64,000 nucleotides of DNA from Flectonema sp. DT1601 (Eukaryota): positions 310,001 through 374,000 of the forward strand of contig OZ025793.1 in NCBI GenBank assembly GCA_964019425.1, in the 5' to 3' direction. Shown piece by piece: positions 22,535 through 59,233 of the stretch (its first letter is position 1; the number at the start of each line of letters is the position of its first letter). Under the pieces are notes generated by a model, which saw only the letters and a program-made list of their open reading frames with translations, had not been told where the DNA came from and did not search any database. A program made the position numbers and the translations under genes.

Positions 22535-22728
22535 CTAAAAAAAACAAAATAAACAGGTTTGTACTATTACCCTCTTAAGTGTTTCTTTGTGCCTGCTTGC
22601 CGATGCCTTGCAATCTTTTCTTCGCTGACGATTGGCTGGGATGCGACCCCCCGTAGGAGAGCAGAAGTGAAGGGAGGGCCGATCCCAAAAGGATCCAGCC
22701 CCTATCCCCCCTGTTGATTTATTCACTC
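22535..22728 (+). mobile_element. Family C 3' end (CAAAA-hairpin insert; 5' limit uncertain)
   Basis: GGGC-C-GATCC-CAAAA-GGATC-CA-GCCC at 22676-22701, ending TTATTCACTC. The same 3' end recurs at 27141-27208. Confidence 0.7.
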
Positions 22729-23128
22729 CAGGTGTGAGTAGTTTTTTTGTTCTTGCTCTTCAGGGAGGGCCTTAGCCAAAAGCTAACAGTCCAAATCTCA
22801 CCTGGTAACTTAACTCTCTCTCCTGTTGTGACAAACACAAAATACACACACAGCTTACAGTGTGTTCTTTGTGTATGTTTTCTTCAGGTGTGAGTAGTTT
22901 TTTAGTTCTTGCTCTTCAGGGAGGGCCTTAGCCAAAAGCTAACAGTCCAAATCTCACCTGGTAACTTAACTCTCTCTCCTGTTGTGACAAACACAAAATA
23001 CACACACAGCTTACAGTGTGTTCTTTGTGTATGTTTTCTTCAGGTGTGAGTAGTTTTTTAGTTCTTGCTCTTCAGGGAGGGCCTTAGCCAAAAGCTAACA
23101 GTCCAAATCTCACCTGGAAATTCAACTC
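22729..23128 (+). repeat. Three tandem copies (156-bp period) of the family A 3' terminus
   Basis: Ends at 22816, 22972 and 23128, each after GGGC-C-TTAGC-CAAAA-GCTAA-CA-GTCC. Confidence 0.9.
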
Positions 23129-23395
23129 CGTTTGTTAGCTGCTGGTGTAATTAAATCATTGCATTTGTTTATTTGTTATCTTTTACTACAATTACTGTTC
23201 TGGTCTGTTACTTCATTTGTCTTGTTTAACTTCAGTTATATCCATTTTACTTTTTATTGTTTCCCATCTACTTTTTATTTTCTATTAGTTCTGGTCAGAA
23301 ACTCCTGGGCAGCAAGAAGGAAAGTAGTTAAGTACTTCTGGGTGTTTGGCATCACCCCCCATAGTGAGCAAGTACAACAGGTAGCATTGGTAGTC

Positions 23396-24150
23396 GAATA
23401 AGAAATTTGGGAGAGGAATGGGGGCAGTGAACTTTTGATTCAGGCCCTTCCCATCGAACAGGACGAAGACTTCTAAAACCTGAGATGAACCAATTGAGTT
23501 GAAACAAACAAATAACAGAGACGCAACACATACCGGAACATCATCGCAAGCAATGCTTCGGACCTCCGTCGACCTTCGTTCTTCCGGCGGCAAAGGGAAA
23601 CAAGAAAGAACGGGCAATGAGACAAACCTGTTAGTTGGTGTTGTGTTGTTGTTAAAAACAAAAACATAAACGCCAGGAAGTTCGACAACGAAGACATCGA
23701 CATCGATCGCTGCTCTGCAGATGTCCGGCGGGTGTTTGTCTACACTGTGTTTATTGTTTGTTTTTTTCCCAAGGTTCAACCCTGGGAAGAGAAGTAAAAA
23801 ATTCCGTCAGTGTTGGCCTTCCTGTTCGAAGGTGCGCACCAATGACGATAAATAGAGTGGGGGGGAGAAAACCTTTGATCCAACTGGATCCCTTCACGAG
23901 CTGACATTGCCATGTGAAGTTAAATATTCTGGCGATGCCAGCTCAGGCGACTTAGCCTGCTTTTTTCTTTAAATAAAAAAAATAAAAAGATACCAACAGG
24001 TGGGGTGATGGGTTGCACCACTGCAATCCAGTCACAAAAAGAAACAAAGGTAATCTCAAGGGTTCTCGACCCTTGGCTCTCCCTGCGCAAGCATCGCATG
24101 GAGGGTGACGCTAAGCACCCGGGGGGTACGAAACAAACTTTCCCCCTGCT
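23396..24150 (-). mobile_element. Family D insert (~750 bp) within a family A copy
   Basis: Unique sequence interrupting A. Its minus-strand 3' end has GGGC-C-TGAAT-CAAAA-GTTCA-CT-GCCC (23447-23422) followed by ...TTCTTATTC. Confidence 0.65.
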
Positions 24151-25224
24151 GTCCTGAGTGATCCCAGCTACAGTTTTGTTTTTCTTTCTTTTTTTTAGAA
24201 GAAGATCAGGACAGCCTAGCACTGCTGGATAGTTGCTGAATGCAGGGCCTGCCTGTGGCATTATAATAACAGGCTAAGTCATTTGAAGTTCATAGTTTAC
24301 CTTTGATTTTATAACTTCACATAGGTACTATGAACGATGAGAGATCCAGTGGGATCACTCAGGGTCTAGTAGAGACCACCAATGTTGTGCGTTGATAGGC
24401 AAGGTGATCAACCTTGACATTCTTTCTTTTCTCTCCTGTTGTGACAAACACAAAATACACACACAGCTTACAGTGTGTTCTTTGTGTATGTTTTCTTCAG
24501 GTGTGAGTAGTTTTTTTGTTCTTGCTCTTCAGGGAGGGCCTTAGCCAAAAGCTAACAGTCCAAATCTCACCTGGAAATTCAACTCTTCTGGTCTGTTACT
24601 TCATTTGTCCTGTTTAACTTCAGTTATATCCATTTTACTTTTTATTGTTTCCCATCTACTTTTTATTTTCTATTAGTTCTGGTCAGAAACTCCTGGGCAG
24701 CAAGAAGGAAAGCAGTTTAGTACTTCTGGGTGTTTGGCATCACCCCCCATAGTGAGCAAGTACAACAGGTAGCATTGGTAGTCTGTTGATCCTGAGTGAT
24801 CCCAGCTACAGTTTTGTTTTTCTTTCTTTTTTTTAGAAGAAGATCAGGACAGCCTAGCACTGCTGGATAGTTGCTGAATGCAGGGCCTACCTGTGGCATT
24901 ATAATAACAGGCTAAGTCATTTGTAGTTCATCGTTTACCTTTGATTTTATAACTTCACATAGGTACTATGAACGATGAGAGATCCAGTGGGATCACTCAG
25001 GGTCTAGTAGAGACCACCAATGTTGTGCGTTGATAGGCAAGGTGACCAACCTTGACATTCTTTCTTTTCTCTCCTGTTGTGACAAACACAAAATACACAC
25101 ACAGCTTACAGTGTGTTCTTTGTGTATGTTTTCTTCAGGTGTGAGTAGTTTTTTTGTTCTTGCTCTTCAGGGAGGGCCTTAGCCAAAAGCTAACAGTCCA
25201 AATCCCACCTAGTAAATTCAACTC
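24151..25224 (+). mobile_element. Two head-to-tail partial family A copies
   Basis: Both end in AATTCAACTC (24585, 25224) and match the reverse complement of ~34656-35295. Confidence 0.85.
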
Positions 25225-25482: not shown

Positions 25483-26866
25483 GAGTTGAATTACCAGGTG
25501 AGATTTGGACAGTTAGCTTTTGGCTAAGGCCCTCCCTGAAGAGCAAGAACAGAAAAACTACTCACACCTGAAGAAAGCATACACAAAGAACACACTGTAA
25601 GCTGTGTGTGTATTTTGTGTTTGTCACAACAGGAGAGAAAAGAAAGAATGTCAAGGTTGGTCACCTTGCCTATCAACGCACAACATTGGTGGTCTCTACT
25701 AGACCCTGAGTGATCCCACTGGATCTCTCATCGTTCATAGTACCCTGTGTGAAGTTATAAAATCAAAGGTAAACTATGAACTACAAATGACTTAGCCTGT
25801 TATTATAATGCCACAGGCAGGCCCTGCATTCAGCAACTATCCAGCAGTGCTTGGATGTCCTGATCTTCTTCTAAAAAAAAGAAAGAAAAACAAAACTGTA
25901 GCTGGGATCACTCAGGATCAACAGACTACCAATGCTACCTGTTGTACTTGCTCACTATGGGGGGTGATGCCAAACACCCAGAAGTACTTAACTACTTTCC
26001 TTCTTGCTGCCCAGGAGTTTCTGACCAGAACTAATAGAAAATAAAAAGTAGATGGGAAACAATAAAAAGTAAAATGGATATAACTGAAGTTAAACAAGAC
26101 AAATGAAGTAACAGACCAGAACAGATAGAGAATAAAAATAAAAGATATAGGCAAGAATGATTGTAGTGAAAGATTAACAATAAAAAAAATGCAAGATCAA
26201 CACATGATCAAGATACACCAGCAGCTAACAAACAACATAAAATTGAAGATCAGTTTCCAGAGTATTTCAACCATGGTAGAATACTCGCCCCTCTGGCAGG
26301 GATTATCCCAGACTTGTCCTTTAATCTAGTTGGACACCATGGCTTACAACCCTTCCAGAGGGAAGCACCATTATGACTTCTATTTTTTTCTTCAAGAAAA
26401 TCATAAGGTGGGAACAAAGAAAAATGCTAAGAGGAACCCCTTATTAACACCTAAGACATCTAAACTGCAGCCCAGCTTATGCCCAATGCACTAACAGGTC
26501 ATTCCCTCACACTCAGATCAAAAAATCAAAGTTCAGAGTGCATCTTAGCATGAATGAGAGAAATTTCTCATCGCTTTTTTTGAACAAAAGGGATAGAAGA
26601 GGGGATAGAAAACGAACATAACAATAAAATTCTAAATGAGAAACACTTAGCAGAAACACTTAGCAGCTTTTAAGGAGCTGAAAAGCAAAAAAAAAATCTA
26701 AGTGAGAAACACTTAGTAGAAACAATTCGTAGCTAATTAAGCTGAAAATAAAAAAATAAAAAAATTCTAAGTGAGAAATACTTAGCAACTTTTAGAACAA
26801 ATATTTCAGTAAATAACCTGTAATGATTAAACCATTACAGGTTTGATGTCAAAACTGACAAGGACT
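25483..26866 (-). mobile_element. Full-length family A element (~1.38 kb, non-coding)
   Basis: Collinear with 34656-36014; its 3' end at 25483 carries the CAAAA hairpin. Confidence 0.85.
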
Positions 26867-28418
26867 GAGTTGAATTACCAGGTGAGATTTGGACAGTTAG
26901 CTTTTGGCTAAGGCCCTCCCTGAAGAGCAAGAACAGAAAAACTACTCACACCTGAAGAAAGCATACACAAAGAACACACTGTAAGCTGTGTGTGTATTTT
27001 GTGTTTGTCAAAACAGGAGAGAAAAGAAAGAATGTCAAGGTTGGTCACCTTGCCTATCAACGCACAACATTGGTGGTCTCTACTAGACCCTGAGTGATCC
27101 CACTGGATCTCTCATCGTTCATAGTACCCTGTGTGAAGTTGCGGAAGTGAAGGGAGGGCCGATCCCAAAAGGATCCAGCCCCTATCCCCCCTGTTGATTT
27201 ATTCACTCCTTAGCCTGTTATTATAATGCCACAGGCAGGCCCTGCATTCAGCAACTATCCAGCAGTGCTTGGATGTCCTGATCTTCTTCTAAAAAAAATG
27301 GGCTGCAGTTTAGATGTCTTAGGTGTTAATAGGGGGTTCCTCTTAGCATTTTTCTTTGTTCCCACCTTATGATTTTCTTGAAGAAAAAAAATAGAAGTCA
27401 TAATGTTGCTTCCCTCTGGAAGGGTTGTAAGCCATGGTGTCCAACTAGATTAAAGGACAAGTCTGGGATAATCCCTGCCAGAGGGGCGAGTATTCTACCA
27501 TGGTTGAAATACTCTGGCAACTGATCTTCAATTTTATGTTGCTTGTTAGCTGCTGGTGTAATTAAATCATGTGTTGATACTTGCATTTGTTTATTTGTTA
27601 TCTTTTACTACAATAACGCTTGCTTATCCTTTCTTTTTATTCCCTATCTAATGCCTTTTGTTCAAAAAAAGCGATGAGAAATTTCTCTCATTCATGCTAA
27701 GATGCACTCTGAACTTTGATTTTTTGATCTGAGTGTGAGGGAATGACCTGTTAGTGCATTGGGCATAAGCTGGGCTGCAGTTTAGATGTCTTAGGTGTTA
27801 ATAAGGGGTTCCTCTTAGCATTTTTCTTTGTTCCCACCTTATGATTTTCTTGAAGAAAAAAAATAGAAGTCATAATGGTGCTTCCCTCTGGAAGGGTTGT
27901 AAGCCATGGTGTCCAACTAGATTAAAGGACAAGTCTGGGATAATCCCTGCCAGAGGGGCGAGTATTCTACCATGGTTGAAATACTCTGGCAACTGATCTT
28001 CAATTTTATGTTGTTTGTTAGCTGCTGGTGTATCTTGATCATGTGTTGATACTTGCATTTTTTTATTTGTAATCTTCTATTACAATTCTCTTTCTGTTCT
28101 GATCTGTTACTTCATTTGTCTTGTTTAACTTCAGTTATATCCATTTTACTTTTTATTGTTTCCCATCTACTTTTTATTTTCTATTAGTTCTGGTCAGAAA
28201 CTCCTGGGCAGCAAGAAGGAAAGCAGTTTAGTACTTCTGGGTGTTTGGCATCACCCCCCATAGTGAGCAAGTACAACAGGTAGCATTGGTAGTCTGTTGA
28301 TCCTGAGTGATCCCAGCTACAGTTTTGTTTTTCTTTCTTTTTTTTAGAAGAAGATCAGGACATCCTAGCACTGCTGGATAGTTGCTGAATGCAGGGCCTG
28401 CCTGTGGCATTATAATAA
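26867..28418. mobile_element. Rearranged family A pieces: minus 26867-~27298 (with a family C insert), plus ~27299-27650 and ~27655-28418
   Basis: Repeated blocks identical to A in both orientations. Confidence 0.8.
27141..27208 (+). mobile_element. 68-bp 5'-truncated family C insert
   Basis: Matches 22661-22728 and replaces 34 bp of A (ATAAAATC...AAATGA) when compared with ~34930-34963. Confidence 0.85.
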
Positions 28419-32210: not shown

Positions 32211-32221
32211 ACATACTTGTA

Positions 32222-34241: not shown

Positions 34242-34502
34242 GAATTTCGATAAAGTGGGAAGTAACGGACTGGGAGCTTTTGGCTCCTGCCCTATTCCCG
34301 ATGTAAACTTTCTTTTTATTTTTATTTTTTCTTAACAGGCCCAAAGGGCGACAATGATGGTTGCTGACCAAGGAATAATATTCAAATGAATTTTCGTTTC
34401 AAAGAAACGAACAGAATTAAGAGAGAGGCAGAGGAAAAAAAAAAAAAAAGAAAGAAAAGAAAAGAAAAAAAAAAATGAAGAGGAAATAATCAAACATGAA
34501 AA

Positions 34503-34543
<41 letters not shown>

Positions 34544-34655
34544 ATAAAAAACGTTGTATGAAAAAGGAAAAAAAAGAAAAAAAAAAGACCAGAAAAGGAA
34601 AGAGAAAATGAAAAGGTATAATATTATTGTGGGGATATGAGGGATAGCAGGGAGA

Positions 34656-36147
34656 GAGTTGAATTTCCAGGTGAGATTTGGACTGTTAGCTTTTGGCTAA
34701 GGCCCTCCCTGAAGAGCAAGAACAAAAAAACTACCCACACCTGAAGAAAACATACACAAAGAACACACTGTAAGCTGTGTGTGTATTTTGTGTTTGTCAC
34801 AACAGGAGAGAAAAGAAAGAATGTCAAGGTTGGTCACCTTGCCTATCAACGCACAACATTGGTGGTCTCTACTAGACCCTGAGTGATCCCACTGGATCTC
34901 TCATCGTTCATAGTACCCTGTGTGAAGTTATAAAATCAAAGGTAAACTATGAACTACAAATGACTTAGCCTGTTATTATAATGCCACAGGCAGGCCCTGC
35001 ATTCAGCAACTATCCAGCAGTGCTTGGAAGTCCTGATCTTCTTCTAAAAAAAAGAAAGAAAAACAAAACTGTAGCTGGGATCACTCAGGATCAACAGACT
35101 ACCAATGCTACCTGTTGTACTTGCTCACTATGGGGGGTGATGCCAAACACCCAGAAGTACTAAACTGCTTTCCTTCTTGCTGCCCAGGAGTTTCTGACCA
35201 GAACTAATAGAAAATAAAAAGTAGATGGGAAACAATAAAAAGTAAAATGGATATAACTGAAGTTAAACAAGACAAATGAAGTAACAGACCAGAACAGAAA
35301 GAAAATTGTAATAGAAGATTACAAATAAAAAAATGCAAGTATCAACACATGATCAGGATACACCAGCAGCTAACAAACAACATAAAATTGAAGATCAGTT
35401 GCCAGAGTATTTCAACCATGGTAGAATACTCGCCCCTCTGGCAGGGATTATCCCAGACTTGTCCTTTAATTTAGTTGGACACCATGGCTTACAACCCTTC
35501 CAGAGGGAAGCACCATTATGACTTCTATTTTTTTTCTTCAAGAAAATCATAAGGTGGTAACAAAGAAAAAATGCTAAGAGGAACCCCCTATTAACACCTA
35601 AGACATCTAAACTGCAGCCCAGCCTATGCCCAATGCACTAACAGGTCATTCCCTCACACTCAGATCAAAAAAATCAAAGTTCAGAGTGCATCTTAGCGTG
35701 AATGAGAGAATTTCCTCCCGCTTATTTTGAACAAAAGGGATAGGAGAAGGGATAGAAAACGAACATAAAAATAAAATTCTAAGTGAGAAACACTTAGCAG
35801 AAACACTTAGCAGCTTTTAAGGAGCTGAAAAGCAAAAAAAAAATCTAAGTGAGAAACACTTAGCAGAAACAATTTGTAGCTAATTAAGCTGAAAATAAAA
35901 AAAATAAAAAATTTCTAAGTGAGAAATACTTAGCAACTTTTAGAACAAATATTTCAGTAAATAACCTGTAATGATTAAACCATTACAAGTTTGATGCCAA
36001 AACTGACAAGGACTGAGTTGAATTTCCAGGTGAGATTTGGACTGTTAGCTTTTGGCTAAGGCCCTCCCTGAAGAGCAAGAACAAAAAAACTACCCACACC
36101 TGAAGAAAACATACACAAAGAACACACTGTAAGCTGTGTGTGTATTT
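34656..36147 (-). mobile_element. Family A full copy (34656-36014) plus tandem 3' piece (36015-36147) inserted into the HERO terminus
   Basis: Splits GAGCA|TCTCCCTG of the host terminus with no duplication. Confidence 0.9.
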
Positions 36148-36942
36148 TGCTCTTTTTTTTTTTTTTTTTTTTTTTCTTATTTATTATTTAAAAAAAGGAA
36201 ACAATCAGTTTAGCGTCTCGATCAGGACGGAAAATAGAAATTAATCGACATAGTTGATCGATAGAAAAAAAAACAATGATAACATTGTTTATTCATTTTT
36301 TTTTTTTTTTTTTTTTTTAAATCTTTTTAATTATTTTAAAGAAAAAACAATCAGTTTAGCGTCTTGACCAGGACGGAAAATAGTAAGTAATCGACATAGT
36401 CGATCGATAAAAAAAAAACAATGATAACATTGTTTATTCCTTTTTTTTTTTTTTTATTCTTTTTATTTATTTTTAAAGAAAAAACAATCAGTTTAGCGTC
36501 CTGACCAGGACGGAAAATAGAAAGTAATCGACATAGTCGATCGATAAAAAAAAACAATGATAACATTGTTTATTCTTTTTTTTTTTTTTTTATTTTAATT
36601 CTTTTTATTTATTTTTTAAAAAGAAAGAAAATGGAAAATAGAAATTAGTCAACAAAGTCGAACGATAAAAAAAACACAATGATAACATTGTTTATTCTTT
36701 TTTTTTTTATTTTTTTATATTCTTTTTTATTAATTTTGAAAAAAAAAACAATCAGTTTAGCGTCTTGACCAGGACGGAAAATAGAAAGTAATCGACATAG
36801 TCGATCGATAAAAAAAAACAATGATAACATTGTTTATTCTTTTTTTTTTTTATTTTAAATTCTTTTTATTTATTTTTTAAAGAAAAAAAACGGAAAATAG
36901 AAATTAGTCGACAAAGTCGAACGATAAAAAAAAACAATGATA

Positions 36943-44879: not shown

Positions 44880-45325
44880 AGCTTTTTGTGGAGCTATCCA
44901 CTCTGCGGTCTTTTTAGGCCCCTCTATCTCCTTTGCTTTATAAGACCCAATGTTTCTTCTCATCCAATTGCTTTTCTCAAGTTGCCTCTTCGGCATTCAT
45001 TTGCCAACCACATTATTTATCAAAATATATATTATAAACAAGTAGTTACTCCGATTTTTCTGTTTTAGAGCGTAGCTCGTTTTCCTTTAAACAGTATTTA
45101 CCAAAAAAAAAACTCTAGGGTTAGCTGCCCGAAATTAAAAAAAAAAGGAATAGTTTAAAAAAAAAGATCTTAACTCATCGATATTGTTTCTGAGCCATTC
45201 TCTTTTCTATTTTTTTTTTTTTTTTTATTATTGCTACTTCACAACAAAAAAAAAAAGAAACACCGGGCCGGCGGTGTCATAAAGATACTGGCAACCATCT
45301 CTCAGCCAACCCAGCCCCCGAGGCT

Positions 45326-48033
45326 TTGCAAGAGGCTATTTCGAGATCGGCTCTGGATGGGGATAAAACTTTAGTAGCCAAATGTCCTTTATGTTTTGAG
45401 ACATACCTCAAAGGTCCAGTTGCGCATTTTAGACGTAACTGTAAGTTTAGTAAGGAATTTAAGGACTATAAGTCACGTTTTCCCCCATCTACCCACTCCC
45501 AAGTTAAAGATTGTTACCACTTACCTTGTCCAGAATGTGGTAAGCTTTTCAAAAGTATCGCTACGAGAGCGAAACACTGTGTTAACGGTACATGTAAAGG
45601 TACACCTCTGTCTCCCCTCACAGGGAATAATTCAGACCTGGAACCTCCCTTTGTAGGAGAATCTGTAGATTTTAAAACTTCACAAACAGCTTTCGTTCCT
45701 TATAACTCTACAACACCCACTTTTACCCCGTTACACCCGTCTCGTCTCAAATTCCGATCTTTTGGAACTGAATGGAAGGACATCGACGTTTCTGCTGCAG
45801 AAAAACTTCAAACTTTCACCGTCGAAACAGAAAACTCTTCAAAACCTGCCGACCAACTTGATAAACTACTCAAAACGGTTTATCAAATATGTAGCGGTTT
45901 CTTTGAAGAAACAAAGCGGAATTTACCCCGCAAACAGAAATCAAGGGAAGAGGTCATCCTCGACCAAGAAAAACTTGAATGTCGTCTGGAAATGAAACAG
46001 CTAAGACAGGAGCTCCGCAAATCAGGGCCTTCTATAGAGAACGCTGTCAAATGGAAAGAGGCAAGAACGAGAATGAAAAGGATTTTCCGAATGTATCGGA
46101 ATTTAGAAAAGAAAAATTTATTCAAAAAATTACAAGATAAATTTCGTCAAAATCCGTTTACTGCCATAAAAGAAGAACTCCAAAAAGAAGATCCTCAACC
46201 CCCCTCCCTTGATATTCCAGAGGAAAAAATAATTGAACATTTTAAAAACAATTATTGTGACAATGAAAAAAAAAAAACTGATTTCACCCATCCCTCTTTT
46301 TTACCTAAGTCTGACTACAAGACAATGGATGATATCCAGTTCCCGAGCTTCGAACAGTTTGGTATTCTCTTATCAAAGAAAAAAAACAAATGTGCCCCTG
46401 GTCCCAATTGCATACCTTATGTTGTATGGAAAAAGGTCCCAACTTTTATGGAAGCACTTTACAAGGTATTAAAGAGAATTTTCGAACTCAAGGCCTATCC
46501 GGATAGTTGGGGCTTAGCATTTGTAACAATGCTCCCAAAGCCCAACTCCGATGGGAAAGACATCTCGAAAACGAGACCGATAGCTGTGGGCAACTGCGAC
46601 GGGAAAATTTTTAATACGGTTATTCAGGAAGCCGTCGCAAGCCACACTCTTTCTAAATTTAATTTTCAAAAAGGCTTTAGGAAAGGTGTCTCTGGGTGTA
46701 TCGAACATGCCACGATCACCTCAGAGATTTTTAAAGAAGTGAAAGCTCTCCGGAAAAACCTAACAATTGTCTGGGTGGATTTGGCAGATGCTTTCGGCTC
46801 AGTCAAACATCAATTAATTTTCTTTGCTTTAAAATATTTCGGAATTCACGAAAGAATAATCGGTTTCTATAAAAGGTATTATTCCTCCATGCGCGTCCAA
46901 ATCAGAGTTGGAGAAGGCCTGACGCCCACTATCCCTTTTGAAGTTGGTGTCTTTCAAGGCTGCGTTTCCTCCCCAACCCTTTTTAATTTGGTATTCCAAC
47001 TACTGCTCTTTTCCTTAGCAGTTCATCAACAGGAAGCCTACGAGTTTAACAATAAATCCCTCCAACTATTAGTTGCAGCTTTTGCTGATGATTTACAACT
47101 TACCACGTCATCAAAGGCGGGGGCAAAATTGCTAATCAAGTCGCTCGAACAGTTTCTTTCCTGGTCTCGTGGTATGAAAGCGAAACCCCAGAAATGCATT
47201 GCCCACAGCTTTGTACAAGGGAAACCAGCTAACCCGGACCTGAAGATTAACAATGTTCCGATTACGAATCTCCAGGAAGCTGGAGAGTTCAAATACCTCG
47301 GGCGTTGGTTTGAGCCGAACGCCAAAGAACAGAAATTGCGAGAGCGCCTGACCACTTTTACCAGGAATTTTTTAAAAAAAGTCGACGCCATGCCACTATA
47401 TGGGTCTCAGAAGGCTTGGTCTGTCCAACACTTGTTATTGTCAAGGTTAACATGGAGTTTAATGATCCAAAATAAAAAGAAGGATTTAAAAAAAAGAAGA
47501 AAAAAAAAAAAAAGAATAAACAATGTTATCATTGTTTTTTTATCGATCGACTATGTCGATCACTTTCTATTTTTCGTCCTGGTCAAGACGCTAAACTGAT
47601 TGTTTTTTCTTTAAAAATAATAAAAAGGATTTAAAAAAAAAAAAAAAAAAAAAAAGAATAAACAATGTTATCATTGTTTTTTTATCGATCGACTATGTCG
47701 ATCACTTTCTATTTTCCGTCCTGGTCAAGACGCAAAACTGATTGTTTTTTTTTCAAAATTAATAAAAAAGAATACAAAAAAAAATAAAAAAAAAAAGAAT
47801 AAACAATGTTATCATTGTTTTTTTTTTTATCGTTCGACGTTGTTGACTAATTTCTATTTTCCGTTTTTTTTTTTTCTTTTTAAAAAATAAATAAAAAGAT
47901 TTAAAAAAAAAAAAAAAAAGAATAAACAATGTTATCATTGTTTTTTTTATCGATCGACTATGTCGATTACTTTCTATTTTCCGTCCTGGTCAAGACGCTA
48001 AACTGATTGTTTTTTCTTTAAAAAAAAAAAAAG

Positions 48034-48070
<37 letters not shown>

Positions 48071-48844
48071 ATAAACAATGTTATCATTGTTTTTTTTTTA
48101 TCGATCGACTATGTCGATCACTTTCTATTTTCCGTCCTGGTCAAGACGCTAAACTGATTGTTTTTTTTTTCAAAATTAATAAAAAAGAATATAAAAAAAA
48201 AAATAAAAAAAAAAGAATAAACAATGTTATCATTGTTTTTTTTTTTATCGTTCGACTTTGTTGACTAATTTCTATTTTCCGTTTTTTTTCTTTTTAAAAT
48301 AAAAAGAATTTAAAAAAAAAAAAAAAAAAGAGTAAACAATGTTATCATTGTTTTTTTTATCGATCGACTATGTCGATTACTTTCTATTTTCCGTCCTGGT
48401 CAAGACGCTAAACTGATTGTTTTTTTTTCAAAATTAATAAAAAAGAATATAAAAAAAAACAAAAAAAAAAAGAATAAACAATGTTATCATTGTTTTTTTT
48501 TATCGTTCGACTTTGTCGACTAATTTTTATTTTCCGTTTTTTTTCTTTAAAAATAAATAAAAAGAATTTAAAAAAAAAAAAAAAAAAAGAATAAACAATG
48601 TTATCATTGTTTTTTTATCGATCGACTATGTCGATCACTTTCTATTTTCCGTCCTGGTCAAGACGCTAAACTGATTGTTTTTTCTTTAAAATAATAAAAA
48701 GGATTAAAAAAAAAAAAAAAAAAAAAAAAGAATAAACAATGTTATCATTGTTTTTTATCGATCGACTATGTCGATCACTTTCTATTTTCCGTCCTGGTCA
48801 AGACGCTAAACTGATTGTTTTTTCTTTAAAAAATAATTAAAAGG

Positions 48845-48875
<31 letters not shown>

Positions 48876-49267
48876 ATAAACAATGTTATCATTGTTTTTT
48901 TATCGATCGACTATGTCGATCACTTTCAATTTTCCGTCCTGGTCAGGACGCTAAACTGATTGTTTTTTCTTTAAAAATAAATAAAAAGAATAAAAAAAAA
49001 GAAAAAAAAAAGGAATAAACAATGTTATCATTGTTTTTTTTTTATCGATCGACTATGTCGATTACTTTCTATTTTCCGTCCTGGTCAGGACGCTAAACTG
49101 ATTGTTTTTTCTTTAAAAATAAATAAAAAGAATAAAAAAAAAAGAAAAAAAAAAGGAATAAACAATGTTATCATTGTTTTTTATCGATCGACTATGTCGA
49201 TCACTTTCTATTTTCCGTCCTGGTCAAGACGCTAAACTGATTGTTTTTTCTTTAAAATAATTAAAAG

Positions 49268-49300
<33 letters not shown>

Positions 49301-49553
49301 ATAAACAATGTTATCATTGTCTTTTTTCTATCGATCGACTATGTGGATCACTTTCAATTTTCCGTCCTGGTCAGGACGCTAAACTGATTGTTTTTTCTTT
49401 AAAAATAAATAAAAAGAATAAAAAAAAAAAAAAAAAAAAGGAATAAACAATGTTATCATTGTTTTTTTTCTATCGATCGACTATGTCGATTAATTTCTAT
49501 TTTCCGTCCTGATCGAGACGCTAAACTGATTGTTTCCTTTTTTTAAATAATAA

Positions 49554-49591
<38 letters not shown>

Positions 49592-52500
49592 ATCTCCCTG
49601 CTATCCTCATATCCCCACAATAATATTATACCTTTTCATTTTCTCTTTCCTTTTCTGGTCTTTTTTTTTTCTTTTTTTCCTTTTTCATACAACGTTTTTT
49701 ATTTATATTTTATTTTTTTTTTTTTTTTTCATGTTTGATTATTTCCTCTTCATATTTTTTTTCTATTCTTTCTTTTTTTTTTTTTTTTTTTTTTTCTCTA
49801 CCTCTCTCTTAATTCTGTTCGTTTCTTTGAAACGAAAATTCATTTGAATATTATTCCTTGGTCAGCAACCATCATTGTCGCCCTTTGGGCCTGTTAAAAA
49901 AAAAAAAAAAATAAAAAGAAAGTTTACGTCGGGAATAGGGCAGGAGCCAAAAGCTCCCAGTCCGTTACTTCCCACTTATCGAAATTCTGACTTATCTCTC
50001 CCTTTTGCCAAAAAAATGGACAAAATTATTAAACCTTTTTTGAAGAAATGGTGGGGATTTGTCCGCTCTGCGAACACAGTCATCCTTTTTACCGGTTCAA
50101 AGAATACTGTTGGTCTCAGACACAAAAGAGTTGAGACGCTATATAAACAAGCGCAATCAATTAAACTAGACATCCTCAGATCCTCACAGGACTCTGACAT
50201 GCACGGTGTCTACAATGTTATTATGGAGAAATCGTCCAACTGGTCGAAAAAGTTTTCAGCTTCTGCTGAGTGGGAGCGCCTTATTAAGTTTTTTTCTTAC
50301 CGTTCTCTTGCGAAGCAATCAGCTGGTCTTGGTCACCGATTGCGCGATCTACGTACTACTCGCCCCGATCTCCTTAAGCGTTTTGAAGTGGAAGCCACAG
50401 ATGAACTACTGAACTCTTTGAATAAATTACAAGTCCAAGGTCAATGGAAGGAGTGGTCTAAATGTATGATAAACGACTTCACCTGGAATAAGGTACTTAG
50501 GGAGGGAAATCCTGCCTATATCTCATTTCAACTGAAAGCGGTTACAAACACCCTCCCCTCACAAGATAATTTAAAGAGGTGGAACATCACCAATGTGGAC
50601 CAAAATTGTGTTTTGTGTGGCAAAGTGAATCCTACCCTCAGGCATGTCTTAACAGGCTGTCCTGTCTCTTTAACACAAGGGAGGTTCACGTGGCGTCACG
50701 ACAGCGTTCTAAAACGCATTGTTATCTTCTTGGAAGAGTTGATAATAAAAGCCAACAAAAGAAAAGAAAACCTTCCGCCTCCCTCTCAAACTTTTTTAAA
50801 AACAGGGGAAAATAAACCCCTAGAAAGAATTTCTAAAGAGACAGGCGAACTTTCACTAGCGAATGATTGGGTCATCCTCGACGATGTCGGTGATAACCGC
50901 CTAATTGTTCCTCTTGAAGTGTGCCATGTCTCGTCCTCTCTAAGACCAGACATTTTTATTTATTCTTTTTTTGCGAAAAGAGCACTGATTCTGGAGCTGA
51001 CGTGTCCAAATGAAGATCGTTTCGAAACCTCTCATGTCTTAAAGGAAAAGAAATACCTAAAGCTAAGAGACTCGATCATCGCTAATGGCTTCGACTGTAA
51101 CATTTTTACTATTGAAGTTGGCGTACGAGGAAACATCTGCATGGACCAGCTGAACATCTGGACACGTCACATCGGTTCACCTTTAGCACCAACAAAAGCT
51201 TTATTTTGTGAATGCACCAGAATCGCCAGACAGTGCTCATATGTTCTGTTCCAGACGAGGAACCTCCCCACGTGGCATTCAAGACCACTAATGCGCAGCA
51301 TTAAAGAAGAACCTGCCACTGCAAGTTTTATAAAAGATGGTAAAGAAATCTTCCCTGTGGAAGAAGTCAAAATCCACAAAGTAACAAAACTGAAAACGAT
51401 CGAAAAGCTCACCATTGAAAGATCGTGGCTTGAGAAATGTTTTATCTGGCAAACTTGTTACGCATCGGCTCTTTCTATTCTACTTGTTGCCAATGGTTCT
51501 TCCTCCCCGGCCCCTTCTGTTTTGTTAGATGAGGATGAGCTCACTGGACTCTCCTTGTCATTCTCTTCTATTTCTTCCATCTCTTTCCAGACTCCCCCAC
51601 CTGAACTCATGTCAACGGGATCGCAAACACTTCCTGCTGATTTCGCTATAGTGATAAGAACTCAATCTGACATGGGTTCTCAAACCCCCTTGTACAAAAA
51701 AAAAGAAGGAAAATTAAGGCTGAAACTTTCCTTGAAATGCCAGATTTTAGAAAACGAATTAGAGCAAATGAAAGAACGAATTTTTTATGTTCTATTTTTA
51801 TTTTACTTTAATGCGATGTCAGCCTCCCTCGAGAAAGACAAGCAGTTACTAAATGGATTACCTGTTGAGATCAAAGCTACCAACCAGGATCCATCCTCAC
51901 TTCCTCCTGCACCCCCTGTTTTAATTATTGAAAAAGATAGAAAAGAATATGAACTTCTGGAAGGAGTAATTCAACGGTTAACAGCAGAACGCGATGAATC
52001 GAAGACTTCTCTTTCTGCACTAGTTCGACAATATGACTTAGTGGAAGATTACAGGAAACGTGAGCTCGCAAATCTGACTCAGAGAGCAGACCTATCGGAA
52101 ATGGCGCTCTTTAATTACCATCAAAGGTTTGTTCTTCTGTCGAACGAATTGGAGACCAAATGTAATGAGGAAAGAGAAAGTAAAATTAGACTTTTCTATA
52201 CTCAACAGGAGGTCGAGAGTTTGCGTGCCGCGCGTCCCCGTATGACCCACTTTAGTCAACAAGTTTCCCCCCGAACCCCCGTTCTGTATGAATCTGTTGC
52301 TATGATGAAGATAGCAAAGAACTACCTCTCGCTCTTTACAACTACGAGTAGTCTTTTTACTCCTCTTATTAAACCCCTTATCCCTACCCTTAATTATATC
52401 ACCCCTCTTTGTCCTCTAGCCTCAATTCCTCCGACAATGCCGCAGAGTGAAGCTCTCGACCGCACGCCGACCAAGATTTTACGACAAGAGAGTCACGTTA

Positions 52501-52970
52501 TCTCCGTTAAAGAGAATACACCTATTGCGAGACAATGGTCCGAGGGTAGGATTGACTTACTCGAGAACTACTGTCGAGCAGTAGATGACTCTCTCGAAAC
52601 AAACGAGAAAGCGGCAGAGCTCTCAGAACAACTTCTGGATGCCCAACTTCGCCTCTCGGAGCTGAATCACCAACGGTGTACAACTCACGCAGAGCAGCTT
52701 GAGCAATCCATGATGTTAACGGGACTGGCGAGCGATTTAAATGCTCAACTCGCTTTGGCACGGTCTCAAATTGCGGCCCTGAAGTTCCAATTAGCTTCAT
52801 GGGCAGAAGGTTTGAGTCCGCCAGACACAGAAGAACATGAGGAAAATGAAACTCCGCCGAGAAAGTCTGAGCGTTCAACTCTGAAAAAACGAACCCCTCC
52901 ATCAAGATATCGTTACAATCGAAGGAGATGTTCTGCTGATGACGTTCACGGTGACTCCACCCCCTTGTAA
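45326..52970 (+). pseudogene. Retrotransposon ORF (ZnF, RT, CCHC, RLE, long C-terminal extension; ~1708 aa when rejoined), interrupted at 47470-49987
   Basis: CPLC and CPEC fingers; RT motifs APGPNCI, RPIA, QKGF, VDLADAFGSV, GVFQG and AFADD (47078-47092), FKYLG; CVLC..H..C, WRHDSVL and RPD..ILELTCP..K..KY endonuclease. Confidence 0.93.
47470..49987 (+). mobile_element. 5'-truncated copy of the element's own 3' region inserted in its ORF
   Basis: The empty site ATGATCCA|TGACTTATC is present at 61816-61832. The insert ends in TCGAAATTC and has no TSD. Confidence 0.92.
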
Positions 52971-53304
52971 TTCTCTTTTTCCTTACTTTCACATCACTTT
53001 GTTTATTTAGTTTTTTAGCTTATTTATTATTTATTGTTCGTTTTTGTTTGTATTATTTTATCGATATGTTTATGTCCGTCAGATCATAACGTTAATCAGG
53101 TTAATTGTTAATTGTTAATTATAAATGGTCTAAACCCCAATCCAAGTTCCCAAGGCTTGGCATAGATTTGAGTGACGCCTTACTGGCCTCCTCATCCTCT
53201 ATGAGTGGTGAGGGGGCCAGCAATGGTTTTTTTTTTTTTCTCTTATTTCTTTTTTTCTTTTTCTTTTACTCTAATATGAAATATTTTTGAACAAAATGTG
53301 ATTA

Positions 53305-53336
<32 letters not shown>

Positions 53337-54186
53337 TGTAAATGAATAATAAAAAAAAAAAAAAAAAAAAATCATGCCTTGGGAATACAACCAAAGCCCC
53401 AATTAATCGGTCCTTTCTTTTTTCCTTCTTGTCAAGTGATCGCTCCACTCGTCGATCACCAAAACCGATTGTATTTATATCTGTTCTTTTCTCAACGATC
53501 GGCTATACCGATCATTTTTTTTAAAAATAATTGTTTTCTTCTTCTCGACGATCAGATCCAATTGATCGACCTTTTCTTTTTTTTTCCTTTATTCCTTCCA
53601 TCCCTCCCGCTCCCCTTATTTTAATAAAAACAAGATCAGCTCAGCTTGATCGTTAAACTTTTTTTATTTATTTATTTTTTTTTTTTATTTATTTAAACTG
53701 ATTGTATTTATATCTGGTTATTTTTCTCAACGATCGGCTATGCCGATCGACCTTTAAAATAATTGTCTTCTTCTTCTCGACGACCAGATCCAATTGATCG
53801 ACCTTTTCTTTTTTTTTCCCTTTATTCCTTCCATCCCTCCCGCTCCCCTTATTTTAATAAAAACAAGATCAGCTCAGCTTGATCGTTATTTATTTATTTA
53901 TTTATATATTTTTTTTTTTTTTTTTTTTTTTTTTGTTGGTCCTAGTCAAGACCTTAAACTGACTAATCGGTCTTAACTTTAACTAAGTGAATGAACCCTT
54001 TCCGTTTTCCTTTTCCCTTTATTACTCTCTATCTGGTCTGTTATGTCATAAATCTCATTTAATTTTATCATTCATTTTAATTTTCACTGTTTCCCATCTA
54101 CATTTTATTTTCAAATAGTTCCGGTCTGTCTCTGATGATAAATTAAACTGATCATGTTAACTCAATTTTTTTTTTATTATGTGCAA

Positions 54187-54285
54187 GAGATACCAACACG
54201 CAAGAGATACCAACGCACATACGAGATACCAGCACTTCCGAGATACCGACACACAAGAGATACCAAGACACTTAAGATACCAGCA
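54187..54285 (+). repeat. Six iterated AGATACC motifs at ~16-19-nt spacing
   Basis: GAGATACCAAC, GAGATACCAAC, GAGATACCAGC, GAGATACCGAC, GAGATACCAAG, AAGATACCAGC; conserved in the inverted copy at ~39672-39772. Confidence 0.8.
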
Positions 54286-54480
54286 AGGACAGTGAGAGGT
54301 AGAATGAACTCTCCTCCTTGTGTCCGATCCTGATTATTTTTTGTTGAATTGGTAGTGTTACCTCATTTTGCTACTCTCGTATCTGTGTTGTGTTAACTCA
54401 TGTAAGTGATCTTAACTCCTGTTAAATAAAAAAAAAAAAATTTCAAAAAAAAAGAAATTAAAAAAGAAGAATTTTCAAAT

Positions 54481-54681
54481 AAAAAAAAAAAAAAAAAAGG
54501 CTGAATTTCGATAAGTGGGAAGTAACGGACTGGGAGCTTTTGGCTCCTGCCCTATTCCCGACGTAAACTTTCTTTTTATTTTTTTTTTTTTTTTAACAGG
54601 CCCAAAGGGCGACAATGATGGTTGCTGACCAAGGAATAATATTCAAATGAATTTTCGTTTCAAAGAAACGAACAGAATTAA
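54481..54681 (-). mobile_element. Inverted ~180-bp HERO 3' terminus plus AGCC-T18, inserted in the 3' region
   Basis: Absent from the homologous site at ~39470-39485. Confidence 0.85.
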
Positions 54682-54789
54682 GTTATATCAACCCCTGCCA
54701 CCCATTATGATCAATTCCGCTTGTTTTTTTTTTTTTCTTTTTTCTTCTTTCTTTTCTTCAAATATAAAAAAAAATTAAAAAATATAAAA

Positions 54790-57700
54790 GATGAAACAAT
54801 GTTATCATTGTTTTTTTTATCGATCGACTATGTCGATTACTTCCAGTTTTCCGTCCTGGTCAAGACGCTAAACTGATTGTTTTTTTTTTTTTTTTTTTTT
54901 AAAAAATTAATAAAAAGAATATATTAAAAAAAAAAAAAAAAAGAATAAACAATGTTATCATTGTTTTTTTTTTTATCGTTCGACTCTGTCGACTAATTTC
55001 TATTTTCCGTTTCTTTTCTTTAAATAATAAATAAAAAGAATTTAAAATAAAAAAAAGGAATAAACAATGTTATCATTGTTTTTTTATCGATCGACTATGT
55101 CGATTACTTTCTATTTTCCGTCCTGGTCAAGACGCTAAACTGATTGTTTTTTTTTCAAAATTAATAAAAAAGAATATTAAAAAAAAAAAAAAAAAAAAAA
55201 AAGAATAAACAATGTTATCATTGTTTTTTTTTATTGTTCGACTTTGTTGACTAATTTCTATTTTCCGTTTTTTTTCTTTAAAAAATAAATAAAAAGAATT
55301 TAAAATAAAAAAAAAGAATAAACAATGTTATCATTGTTTTTTTATCGATCGACTATGTCGATCACTTTCTATTTTCCGTCCTGGTCAAGACGCTAAACTG
55401 ATTGTTTTTTTTTCAAAATTAATAAAAAAGAATATAAAAAAAAAAAAAAAAAAAAAAAGAATAAACAATGTTATCATTGTTTTTTTTATCGTTCGACTTT
55501 GTTGACTAATTTCTATTTTCTGTTTTTTTTTCTTTAAAAAAAAAATAAATAAAAAGAATTTAAAATAAAAAAAAAGAATAAACAATGTTATCATTGTTTT
55601 TTTATCGATCGACTATGTCGATCACTTTCTATTTTCCGTCCTGGTCAAGACGCTAAACTGATTGTTTTTTTTTCAAAATTAATAAAAAAGAATATAAAAA
55701 AAAAAAAAAAAAAAAGAATAAACAATGTTATCATTGTTTTTTTTTTTATCGTTCGACTTTGTCGACTAATTTCTATTTTCCGTTTCTTTTCTTTAAAGAA
55801 TAAATAAAAAGAATTTAAAATAAAAAAAAAAGAATAAACAATGTTATCATTGTTTTTTTTATCGATCGACTATGTCGATCACTTTCTATTTTCCGTCCTG
55901 GTCAAGACGCTAAACTGATTGTTTTTTTTTTTCAAAATTAATAAAAAAGAATATAAAAAAATACAAAAAAAAGAATAAACAATGTTATCATTGTTTTTTT
56001 TATCGTTCGACTTTGTCGACTAATTTCTATTTTCCGTTTTTTTTCTTTAAAAAATAAATAAAAAGAATTTAAAATAAAAAAAAAGAATAAACAATGTTAT
56101 CATTGTTTTTTTTATCGATCGACTATGTCGATCACTTTCTATTTTCCGTCCTGGTCAAGACGCTAAACTGATTGTTTTTTTTTCAAAATTAATAAAAAAA
56201 AAAAAAAAAAAAAAAGAATAAACAATGTTATCATTGTTTTTTTTATCGTTCGACTTTGTTGACTAATTTCTATTTTCCGTTTTTTTTCTTTAAAAAATAA
56301 ATAAAAAGATTTTAAATAAAAAAAAAGAATAAACAATGTTACCATTGTTTTTTTATCGATCGACTATGTCGATCACTTTCTATTTTCCGTCCTGGTCAAG
56401 ACGCTAAACTGATTGTTTTTTTTTTCAAAATTAATAAAAAAGAATATAAGAAAAAAAAAAAAAAAGAATAAACAATGTTATCATTGTTTTTTTTTATCGT
56501 TCGACTTTGTCGACTAATTTCTATTTTCCGTTTCTTTTCTTTAAAGAATAAATAAAAAGAATTTAAAATAAAAAAAAAGAATAAACAATGTTATCATTGT
56601 TTTTTTATCGATCGACTATGTCGATCACTTTCTATTTTCCGTCCTGGTCAAGACGCTAAACTGATTGTTTTTTTTTTTTCAAAATTAATAAAAAAGAATA
56701 TAAAAAAAAAAAAAAAAAAGGAAAAACAATGTTATCATTGTTTTTTTTTTATCGTTCGACTTTGTCGACTAATTTCTATTTTCCGTTTCTTTTCTTTAAA
56801 GAATAAATAAAAAGAATTTAAAATAAAAAAAAAGAATAAACAATGTTATCATTGTTTTTTTTTGTCGATCGACTATGTCGATCACTTTCTATTTTCCGTC
56901 CTGGTCAAGACGCTAAACTGATTGTTTTTTTTTTTCAAATTAATAAAAAAGAATATAAAAAAATACAAAAAAAAGAATAAACAATGTTATCATTGTTTTT
57001 TTTATCGTTCGACTTTGTCGACTAATTTCTATTTTCCGTTTTTTTTTTTCTCTTTAAAAAATAAATAAAAAGAATCTAAAATAAAAAAAAAGAATAAACA
57101 ATGTTATCATTGTTTTTTTATCGATCGACTATGTCGATCACTTTCTATTTTCCGTCCTGGTCAAGACGCTAAACTGATTGTTTTATTTTTTTTTTCAAAA
57201 TTAATAAAAAAGAATATTAAAAAAAATACAAAAAAAAAAAGAATAAACAATGTTATCATTGTTTTTTTTTTTATCGTTCGACTTTGTCGACTAATTTCTA
57301 TTTTCCGTTTTTTTTCTTTAAAAAATAAATAAAAAGAATTTAAAATAAAAAAAAAGAATAAACAATGTTATCATTGTTTTTTTTTATCGATCGACTATGT
57401 CGATTACTTTCTATTTTCCGTCCTGGTCAAGACGCTAAACTGATTGTTTTTTTTTTCAAAATAAAAAAAATATTAAAAAAAAAAAATAAAAAAAAAGAAT
57501 AAACAATGTTATCATTGTTTTTTTTTTTATCGTTCGACTTTGTTGACTAATTTCTATTTCCGTTTTTTTTCTTTAAAAAATAAATAAAAAGAATTTAAAA
57601 AAAAAAAAAAAAAAAAGAATAAACAATGTTATCATTGTTTTTTTTTATCGATCGACTATGTCGATTACTTTCTATTTTCCGTCCTGGTCAAGACGCTAAA

Positions 57701-58800
57701 CTGATTGTTTTTTTTTCAAAATAAAAAAAATATTAAAAAAAAAAAAATAAAAAAAAGAATAAACAATGTTATCATTGTTTTTTTTTATCGTTCGACTTTG
57801 TTGACTAATTTCTATTTTCCGTTTTTTTTCTTTAAAAAATAAATAAAAAGAATTTAAAAAAAAAAAAAAAAAAAGAATAAACAATGTTATCATTGTTTTT
57901 TTTATCGATCGACTATGTCGATTACTTTCTATTTTCCGTCCTGGTCAAGACGCTAAACTGATTGTTTTTTTTTCAAAATAAAAAAAAAATATTAAAAAAA
58001 AAAAATAAAAAAAAAGAATAAACAATGTTATCATTGTTTTTTTTTATCGTTCGACTTTGTTGACTAATTTCTATTTTCCGTTTTTTTTCTTTAAAAAATT
58101 AATAAAAAGAATTTAAAAAAAAAAAAAAAAAAAAAAAAGAATAAACAATGTTATCATTGTTTTTTTTATCGATCGACTATGTCGATTACTTTCTATTTTC
58201 CGTCCTGGTCAAGACGCTAAACTGATTGTTTTTTTTTTCAAAATTAATAAAAAAGAATATAAAAAAATAAAAAAAAAAAGAATAAACAATGTTATCATTG
58301 TGTTTTTTTTATCGTTCGACTTTGTTGACTAATTTCTATTTTCCATTTTTTTTTTCTTTTTAAAAAATAAATAAAAAGAATTAAAAAAAAAAAAAAAAAA
58401 AAAGAATAAACAATGTTATCATTGTTTTTTTTTATCGATCGACTATGTCGATTACTTTCTATTTTCCGTCCTGGTCAGGACGCTAAACTGATTGTTTTTT
58501 CTTTAAAAATAAATAAAAAGAATAAAAAAAAAAAAAAGGAATAAACAATGTTATCATTGTTTTTTTTTATCGATCGACTATGTCGATTACTTACTATTTT
58601 CCGTCCTGGTCAAGACGCTAAACTGATTGTTTTTTCTTTAAAATAATTAAAAAGATTTAAAAAAAAAAAAAAAAAAAAAAAATGAATAAACAATGTTATC
58701 ATTGTTTTTTTTTCTATCGATCAACTATGTCGATTAATTTCTATTTTCCGTCCTGATCGAGACGCTAAACTGATTGTTTCCTTTTTTTAAATAATAAATA
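54790..58800 (+). repeat. ~4-kb satellite of alternating long (~135 bp) and short (~112 bp) hairpin-containing monomers inside the retroelement 3' region
   Basis: Dimer period ~240-255 bp; conserved palindromic cores separated by variable poly(A)/poly(T) tracts. Confidence 0.92.
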
Positions 58801-58946
58801 AGAAAAAAAAAAAAAAAAAAAAAAAAAGAGCATCTCCCTGCTATCCCTCATATCCCCACAATAATATTATACCTTTTCATTTTCTCTTTCCTTTTCTGGT
58901 CTTTTTTTTTTCTTTTTTTTCCTTTTTCATACAACGTTTTTTATTT

Positions 58947-58977
<31 letters not shown>

Positions 58978-59233
58978 ATGTTTGATTATTTCCTCTTCAT
59001 TTTTTTTTTCTTTTCTTTTCTTTCTTTTTTTTTTTTTTTCCTCTGCCTCTCTCTTAATTCTGTTCGTTTCTTTGAAACGAAAATTCATTTGAATATTATT
59101 CCTTGGTCAGCAACCATCATTGTCGCCCTTTGGGCCTGTTAAAAAAAAAATAAAAATAAAAAGAAAGTTTACATCGGGAATAGGGCAGGAGCCAAAAGCT
59201 CCCAGTCCGTTACTTCCCACTTTATCGAAATTC

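Follow-up and report, generated by a model that had tools for sequence, protein, structure and literature searches.

The L2-clade pairs, eel UnaL2/UnaSINE1 and zebrafish ZfL2-1 and ZfL2-2, carry a small 3' stem-loop with swappable stem letters and a specific loop (PMC4176376). In zebrafish L2, stems can be exchanged, whereas an altered loop or an unpaired stem is not tolerated (PMC4176376). UnaL2 is reported to require an internal loop (PMC1636434) and ends in TGTAA repeats (PMC3747384). The R2 3' UTR positions the RNA end for priming (PMC13580325). Drosophila willistoni R2 has an RLE-type protein and a non-autonomous partner, R2 SIDE, with compensatory changes in the 3' structure, junction deletions, untemplated bases and template jumps (PMC3414825). 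R2 is specific for 28S rDNA, and R2 SIDE has a 3' end 81% identical to R2, a poly(A) end and a 5' HDV-like ribozyme. The Entamoeba EhLINE/EhSINE and R4-1_ED pairs are protist RLE LINEs with SINE-like partners that are listed as having common 3' ends (PMC3747384). EhLINE/EhSINE insertions are dispersed, and at the site examined EhSINE1 duplicated 22 bp of its target (PMC1635306). Monocot L1 LINEs and SINEs have in common a hairpin of ~50 nt whose loop is conserved and whose stems vary through compensatory changes (PMC3747384). The HERO clade combines RLE architecture with mostly non-specific insertion (PMC4640811).

The 64,000-nt stretch analysed here (the window) contains four insertion families, A to D, that end in one type of hairpin. 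Family B is the probable 3' end of an RT-RLE element; A, C and D carry no recognizable gene. As in the L2-clade pairs, a predicted 3' stem-loop with a conserved loop is common to autonomous and non-autonomous elements. The protein is of the RLE type here versus APE endonuclease there, and the repeat tail is absent. SINE tails of L2-clade pairs are usually near-identical to the LINE tail, whereas only 16 of 67 aligned tail columns are invariant at this locus, which appears to lack this trait of stringent pairs. R2 SIDE resembles the locus in protein type, partner and junctions, but insertion here is not site-specific, and three families with unrelated bodies and no detected ribozyme are involved. 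Insertion is dispersed as in Entamoeba but without target duplication, and the descriptions of the Entamoeba pairs consulted mention no shared covarying hairpin. The monocot hairpin differs in belonging to poly(A)-type elements of the L1 clade and in its UCU loop. Architecture and insertion resemble HERO, but the predicted protein has a C-terminal extension of >500 residues and the element a putative 6.3-kb UTR. None of the searches returned a named HERO sequence, and membership of that clade is putative. A literature search, with Repbase Reports and most subscription journals outside its scope, found no 3' structure or partner SINE for HERO. The sequence-only reading had called the motif undescribed for HERO elements. 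Its novelty was overstated, because a shared 3' stem-loop with a variable stem and a fixed loop is the established rule of stringent LINE/SINE pairs and has precedents in the RLE group. The principle is known already from L2, R2 SIDE and EhLINE/EhSINE; what is new is a compact, sequence-flexible tag without a repeat tail.

The hairpin and its pairing

The pattern GGGC-N5-7-CAAAA-N6-8-GYCC has 18 exact matches in the window (100 shuffles: mean 0.02, maximum 1). A relaxed structural scan added the TAAAA copy at 30466 and one poor chance match at 33660. The intact hairpins number 19 (10 A, 6 B, 2 C and 1 D), more than had been listed from sequence alone, and all coordinates and sequences quoted there for the four families are present (Table 1). 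A covariance model was built from eight window ends of the hairpin families. Its 20 significant matches in the window are the 19 intact hairpins and an A copy cut inside the hairpin (40600-40643), all at element ends; the next-best matches have E ≥ 1.2. The spacing to the 3' end, previously given as about 25 nt, measures 24-27 nt to the fixed terminus (A and B 24-25, C 27, D 26 nt; six copies measured). Spacing varies, and a strict ruler is absent.

The proposal that the upper stem differs by family yet always pairs was borne out: there are four stems, and 72 of 72 cells are paired. Both sides are changed at four of nine pairs, and control structures shifted by 1-3 columns are 25-50% paired. 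Because only four stems are independent, this evidence falls short of an R-scape-level test of covariation. The fixed letters alone have 70 matches in prokaryote genomes, treated as chance, two of which pair at all five upper-stem positions. Minimum-energy folds of all six ends examined include the lower stem and an outer purine/pyrimidine stem. Single-sequence folding z-scores are modest (-0.7 to -2.9), with A, C and D unremarkable. Predicted pairing probability of the hairpin in context is 0.43-0.62 for A and 0.87-1.0 for B, C and D; models place the A hairpin in competition with alternative folds. The loop of the 30466 copy is predicted to close to three bases. By blastn, tail similarity is limited to the 27-nt hairpin, seen for one A copy against B (E 0.04), and the C and D tails gave no match. 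Pattern and model searches of 78 distant RT loci (27-35% identity) did not detect the hairpin 3' of the match; in 11 of these loci the sequence continues for <20 nt beyond it.

Table 1. Features of the four insertion families and the RT-RLE element (window positions)
Feature	Position	Strand	Details
Putative full-length RT-RLE non-LTR element	44880..59233	+	5' leader, ORF, 6.3-kb 3' UTR, hairpin B, ATTC end
Later B insertions inside RT-RLE element	47470-49987; about 54481-54682	+; -
RT-RLE ORF	45194..52970	+	about 1750 codons stop to stop
Uninterrupted ORF copy	59548..64000	+	open at window end; Pfam, motifs, fold match
Putative 3' UTR	52971..59233	+	A-rich stretch, two 233-nt repeats, about 4 kb of 258-nt minisatellite, 400-nt tail, hairpin
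Second 3' UTR copy	34242..40742	-	5'-truncated and interrupted; hairpin B at 34267-34292
Hairpin B	44829..44854	+	stem GGAGC/GCTCC; pattern and structural scans, fold
Hairpin B, other copies	30466 (TAAAA), 49938, 59183; 34292, 54552	+; -
Full-length family A	25483..26866	-	1384 nt, non-coding; hairpin 25507-25532
Second full-length family A	34656..36014	-	1359 nt; preceded by 135-nt partial copy ending at 36015
Hairpin A	22767..22792	+	stem TTAGC/GCTAA; pattern and structural scans
Hairpin A, 10 intact copies	22767, 22923, 23079, 24536, 25174; 25532, 26916, 34705, 36064, 40792	+; -
Family A insertion starting inside hairpin	40600..40643	-	44 nt; blunt, 3 extra A at 5' junction
Inverted family A piece	21880..22024	-	A positions 1078-1223; forward pieces downstream begin at A position 1229
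Family C copy	27141..27208	+	68 nt; stem GATCC/GGATC; hairpin 27156-27181
Family C end	22661..22728	+	hairpin 22676-22701
Family D insertion	23396..24151	-	756 nt; hairpin 23447-23422; stem TGAAT/GTTCA, U-G closing pair
Diverged sister RT ORF fragment	20132..20245	+	60% amino-acid identity over 38 residues

The R2-like element and hairpin B

The uninterrupted ORF copy encodes two N-terminal zinc fingers, an RT, a CCHC knuckle, a PD..E.K endonuclease motif and the long C-terminal extension. Pfam identifies RVT_1 (E 3e-26) and zf-RVT, and the knuckle and endonuclease motif downstream of the RT are conserved in a 32-row alignment. R2 proteins are the top solved-structure matches (E 5e-77), and the structural model aligns to R2 with a TM of 0.68 over 940 columns. 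The endonuclease region, searched as a single sequence, had no match among solved structures. The predicted features are those of a single-ORF R2-like (RLE) non-LTR retrotransposon with a fixed 3' end and variable 5' truncation. The 5' boundary at 44880 is based on two tandem junctions. The ORF at 45194..52970 is interrupted at 47469|49988 by a B insertion with zero target duplication.

Hairpin B probably forms the 3' end of this element, across the 6.3-kb UTR (longest stop-free frame 114 codons). The link consists of two overlapping pieces. One contig of sequencing run X2 crosses the A-rich stretch, covering 52700-53223 and 53382-53564 in a single record, and the minus-strand UTR copy runs from the counterpart of 53540 through the minisatellite and tail to hairpin B. 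The earlier assignment of B to the RT ORF is upheld by these links, with the limit that the span from ORF to hairpin lacks any single independent record and that runs X1, X2 and X3 leave 53700-54500 uncovered, a gap not counted as evidence. An element ending at the A-rich stretch near 53314-53373, with B separate, was rejected because one X2 record bridges the stretch. A UTR of this length would be unusually long. The B hairpin is first met upstream of each ORF in the window because the copies lie head-to-tail.

Insertion junctions and families A, C and D

Six insertions have an empty reference. None of the six has a target duplication, and target loss was 0, 0, 0, 1, 6 and 34 nt; the 34-nt and 6-nt losses belong to the 27141..27208 C copy and the 23396..24151 D copy, both of which lie within A copies. 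The junction flanks have no consensus. Insertion is largely non-site-specific, which is consistent with HERO and not diagnostic of it. In one B copy the ATTC is followed by AGCC and 18 T, and one A copy carries an extra A. These extra bases suggest RNAs running beyond the terminus. Both full-length A copies have a partial copy in front of them in head-to-tail order (for 25483..26866, one with its end at 26867). Over the 135 nt compared, nucleotide differences number 0 within a tandem pair and 5 between pairs. Fixed 3' ends, truncated 5' ends, the lack of target duplications and same-template tandems together fit target-primed reverse transcription and not Helitrons. The inverted and forward A pieces fit twin-primed reverse transcription, a suggestive reading only, as other insertions lie between the pieces.

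Ends also occur beside new flanking sequence: run X2 has such a case for B, and in run X1 an A end lies inside the RT ORF. Copies of the RT gene contain A, B or D ends at 16 further sites: among 99 database proteins of the same RT clusters, the B end occurs in 12 (three by terminal tripeptide only), A in three, D in one and C in none. An 'IHS' match in P0170, considered as a C end, was in the wrong context and was left out of the count. These A, B and D insertions lie in near-identical young copies of the main RT gene and are therefore recent. Family D also adjoins RT ORF sequence in P0293 and P0220.

Family A is about 1.38 kb long, and its full-length copy has no stop-free frame of >92 codons. 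An internal segment of ~110 nt matches the RT element 3' UTR at 76-79%, and its 5' end does not align to the RT element. If A is a deletion derivative of the R2 SIDE type, in which both ends align to the autonomous element, its parent may be a sister family. Both mapped 5' ends begin with AG followed by a 5-bp hairpin. The 5' ends of C and D are unmapped; the body of the 22661..22728 C copy may extend to about 22025. A tRNA search of the window found none, and a simple pattern for Pol III A or B boxes found none in the A head or in C and D, whose heads are unmapped. Families A, C and D do not appear to be canonical SINEs, which have a tRNA-, 5S- or 7SL-derived head and Pol III boxes.

Proposed role of the hairpin

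On the best reading of these data, the hairpin is a 3' structure that the resident RT recognizes stringently, and it may descend from sister RT families now dead. It would be an RNA handle, bound by the element's RT before copying into a nicked chromosome, and A, C and D would borrow the surviving RT; we give this a probability of roughly 0.6. The protein would read the CAAAA loop, the 1x2 internal loop and the GGGC/GYCC helix, and would require only pairing of the upper stem. With neither poly(A) nor a repeat tail present, cDNA synthesis would start at a UC end shortly downstream of the hairpin, and this end may lie within a longer read-through RNA. Head-to-tail pairs could arise by template jumps or from a circular or tandem template. 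The A, C and D tags were probably inherited from diverged sister elements and would now use the surviving RT. The sequence-only reading, in which the HERO-like RT or close relatives mobilize the element itself and several passenger RNAs, is partly supported. The hairpin lies at fixed ends of insertions with retrotransposon-type junctions, A is non-coding, and A, B and D occur in young RT copies. C and D may instead be sister-element ends: at least two sister RT families have left fragments, so C and D may never have used the main RT.

The hairpin might instead make or protect the RNA 3' end, either by way of a host factor that binds or cleaves it or because it belongs to a self-cleaving or circularizing RNA. 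The RT would then copy whatever ends there. Precise ends without a poly(A) or repeat tail, same-template pairs that look like circular-RNA copying and the AG-plus-hairpin 5' ends would fit this. We consider it unlikely, since no Rfam family reaches threshold anywhere in the window (weak matches only), and no ribozyme, 5' HDV-like ones included, scores at the junctions at threshold or among weak matches, where a divergent one could escape detection. The extra bases beyond the B and A ends suggest read-through RNAs, and the covariance model has no significant match in the host-gene part of the window. The nearest protein to the host gene is a protist transcript at 82%, and an Atlas search gave no more than a weak EF-hand lead.

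A rather improbable alternative keeps the hairpin as an RT handle but gives each variant its own sister RT, so that A, C and D are sister ends or deletion derivatives not cross-mobilized by the B-type protein. Fragments indicate that at least two sister families existed: X (P0172, P0174, P0180 and P0200; 90-95% identical in overlaps) and Y (P0183 and P0212; 97% identical), both 55-72% identical to the main RT, beside a separate 88% group. Family X proteins appear to lie in the same assembly as main-family proteins, and the unmapped C and D 5' ends and the segment that A has in common with the RT element 3' UTR also favor separate RTs. However, the sister matches listed are all single-member fragments of <400 residues, and no long RT ORF between 36% and 99% identity is among the matches listed, where the sole named organism is Sycon ciliatum (uncharacterized protein, 34%). 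The recent A and D insertions inside near-identical main-RT copies, and the lack of a long frame in full-length A, also argue against it.

Helitrons have a CTRR 3' end and an A^T target. Helitron-like rolling-circle DNA elements, with the hairpin as a single-stranded DNA terminator, would account for a subterminal hairpin, tandem copies and absent target duplication but are largely refuted, as a CTRR end occurs in none of the four families, an A^T target at only two of six mapped sites and a Rep or helicase domain in none of eight scanned ORFs, and B is joined to an RT ORF.

The handle reading has a broader form, which we hold only tentatively and think possible at less than even odds. A 45-nt structure-only tag would suffice to license any RNA for insertion by an RLE RT, cDNA synthesis would start inside a longer or circular transcript with no tail or target homology, and one surviving RT would move the tags of several extinct sister lineages.

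What is understood of RNA selection in the RLE group comes mainly from R2. The present branch is a non-site-specific RLE, for which the literature search found no 3' structure. The locus offers natural mutagenesis of a candidate recognition element of very small size, with free and fixed letters visible. Template recognition is directly testable with the four natural RNAs and a small set of mutants. Should the tag prove sufficient, RT-based RNA-to-DNA writing would gain a compact handle. The motif would find every family in the genome that moves by this route, even those with unrelated bodies.

The CAAAA hairpin and its pairing

The hairpin consists of a GGGC/GYCC lower stem, a 1x2 internal loop, a 5-bp upper stem, and a CAAAA loop. 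Its exact pattern matched 18 times in the 64-kb window, compared to a shuffled mean of 0.02. Together with the TAAAA copy of hairpin B at 30466, these matches give 19 intact hairpins (10 in family A, 6 in B, 2 in C, and 1 in D), so the motif is genuine and more frequent than in the sequence-only reading. A covariance model made from 8 element ends was scanned over the window; it recovered all 19 hairpins and a 44-nt A copy cut within the hairpin, with no further significant match there. The hairpin ends 24–27 nt before the element terminus, which bears out its proposed position near the 3' end. The proposal that the upper stem differs in each family yet always pairs also held. All 72 alignment cells are paired and both sides changed in 4 of 9 pairs, a count that represents four independent stems only. 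Prokaryote genomes yielded 70 chance matches to the invariant letters, of which 2 pair at all five upper positions; therefore, paired upper stems in 4 of 4 families are far beyond chance. The lower helices and the outer stem are present in the minimum-energy folds of 6/6 ends. Folding z-scores of the hairpin ends are modest, and, in its sequence context, hairpin A forms only about half of the time in the predicted ensemble. The shared hairpin is a real feature with a conserved structure.

The RT element and hairpin B

The ORF of the R2-like element encodes two zinc fingers, a reverse transcriptase (RT), a CCHC knuckle, and an endonuclease motif, and the structure model of its protein matches R2 proteins across 940 columns. 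Hairpin B lies directly upstream of both ORFs in the window, so its membership in the element was checked. Contigs from three of four sequencing runs carry the ORF through to 53223, and a single record from run X2 extends past the A-rich stretch as far as 53564. In the window's minus-strand copy, the equivalent of 53540 leads into a minisatellite and then hairpin B. These two links overlap and thus give a 6.3-kb non-coding UTR and head-to-tail copies. We infer that hairpin B ends the ORF element, as the sequence-only reading had it; the two overlapping links support this terminus, and no single independent record crosses the complete distance.

The minisatellite (54734–58830; 258-nt unit) contains internal palindromes, accounts for ~4 kb of the inferred 3' UTR, and moves together with the element. 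The ORF runs >500 residues beyond the endonuclease (51290–52970), and in a second subfamily (database proteins P0002 and P0138) the core is near-identical and this C-terminal tail only about 56–72% identical. The first in-frame ATG is codon 267. The zinc-finger part (45194–45330) lies upstream of it, preceded by a poly-A run whose length differs between copies, and the translation start may be non-canonical. The palindromic miniature element also occurs within RT ORFs elsewhere, and the SWIM zinc-finger insertion is probably a MuDR-type DNA transposon remnant.

Coding regions and other elements in the window
Feature	Coordinates	Remarks
ORF, uninterrupted	59548-64000	
ORF, split by B insertion	45194-52970	
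Palindromic miniature element, 305 nt	36941-37245, 38937-39242, 40243-40548	three copies, TA-like flanks
Insertion with SWIM zinc-finger ORF	32200-33780	weak match, E 4e-4

Families A, C, and D, and the insertion junctions

Family A is non-coding and 1359–1384 nt long, its 5' end set by two tandem junctions, and it has about 110 nt in common with the RT element's UTR at 76–79%. Family D is a 756-nt insertion, and family C spans 68 nt or more. Neither matched the set of RT-family proteins with which they were compared. At 10455–10546 (minus strand), a host MORN-kinase gene is interrupted by a short intron that apparently starts with GTTTGT and ends with TAACAG. Both C and D contain an ACAG/GTTTGT string and, by this resemblance, may carry host-derived sequence. 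The 5' starts of the RT element (44880–44905) and family A (26866–26815, minus strand) are alike: AG, a short run, a 5-bp hairpin whose tetraloop begins with G, and a longer stem. TTTTG, the complement of the CAAAA loop, is found in both 5' ends; the resemblance is based on these two examples.

Insertions are fixed at the hairpin end and variable at the opposite end. Target duplication is absent from 6/6 insertions with an empty reference; target loss is 0, 0, 0, 1, 6, and 34 nt, with 5' microhomology in two and extra A residues in one. Families A, B, and D share recent activity: B and A stand next to new flanks in other runs, and copies of the main RT gene that are themselves young contain A and D insertions. 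The 99 RT-cluster proteins appear, partly on the basis of identity, to belong to the same genome as the window. The B end is read into or out of in 12 of them (3 by the terminal tripeptide only), the A end in 3, the D end in 1, and the C end in none. Tandem A pairs show no difference within a pair and 5 nt between pairs, and two RT-array stretches are 2 single-base indels apart over 6278 nt. This near-identity would be expected from template jumping, from a circular or tandem template, or from DNA duplicated recently. In element coordinates, an inverted A piece adjoins the start of the forward piece. A Helitron identity was rejected on Helitron criteria. One B copy (54481–54502, minus strand) carries AGCC and 18 T past ATTC, as if the RNA had read through into the AGCTTTTT start of the next element and gained a U-run extension.

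Precedents, mechanism, and lineage of the tag

The principle of a shared 3' structure is known and has several precedents. The free stem and fixed loop found here match the pattern measured for zebrafish L2 (PMC4176376). Compensatory change maintains the 3' fold of R2 SIDEs (PMC3414825), Entamoeba RLE LINEs have partner elements, and the monocot L1/SINE hairpin has variable stems (both PMC3747384). The R2 3' UTR places the RNA for priming (PMC13580325), and HERO is described as mostly non-specific (PMC4640811). Further literature was not decisive (PMC9004415, PMC5678591, PMC7650587, PMC10294476, PMC2657916, PMC1635306, PMC11167929). A literature search, with Repbase and supplements outside its scope, found neither a HERO 3' structure nor a CAAAA-hairpin motif. 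The novelty lies in how small the tag is, in the four families having lost identity in primary sequence, in the complete lack of a repeat tail, and in the tag's occurrence in an RLE element that is not site-specific. The hairpin probably acts like a stringent LINE/SINE tail: the RT would bind it directly, read its loop, and initiate at the UC end. A function of the hairpin in RNA end processing is a less likely possibility.

The tag is absent from 78 distant RT loci at 27–35% identity, 11 of which end <20 nt past the match, which argues that it is not clade-wide. Some of these relatives lead into simple repeats: telomere-type CCCTAA in five (L002, L007, L012, L050, L071), which may target telomeres, TCTA in four others (L026, L029, L043, L078), and CTA and TAAC in one each (L066 and L069). 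A short motif common to the 3' regions of L033, L051, L058, and L065 may represent a different lineage's 3' structure. Closer to the main RT, at 55–72% identity, two or more sister families are represented by fragments, all single-member, one of them also within the window. No long ORF at 36–99% identity was among the top-scoring candidates listed, and in the best 150 of an exhaustive search the matches in this range were fragments only. Divergence of the tag among sister lineages, with the surviving RT now serving all of them, is the simplest account.
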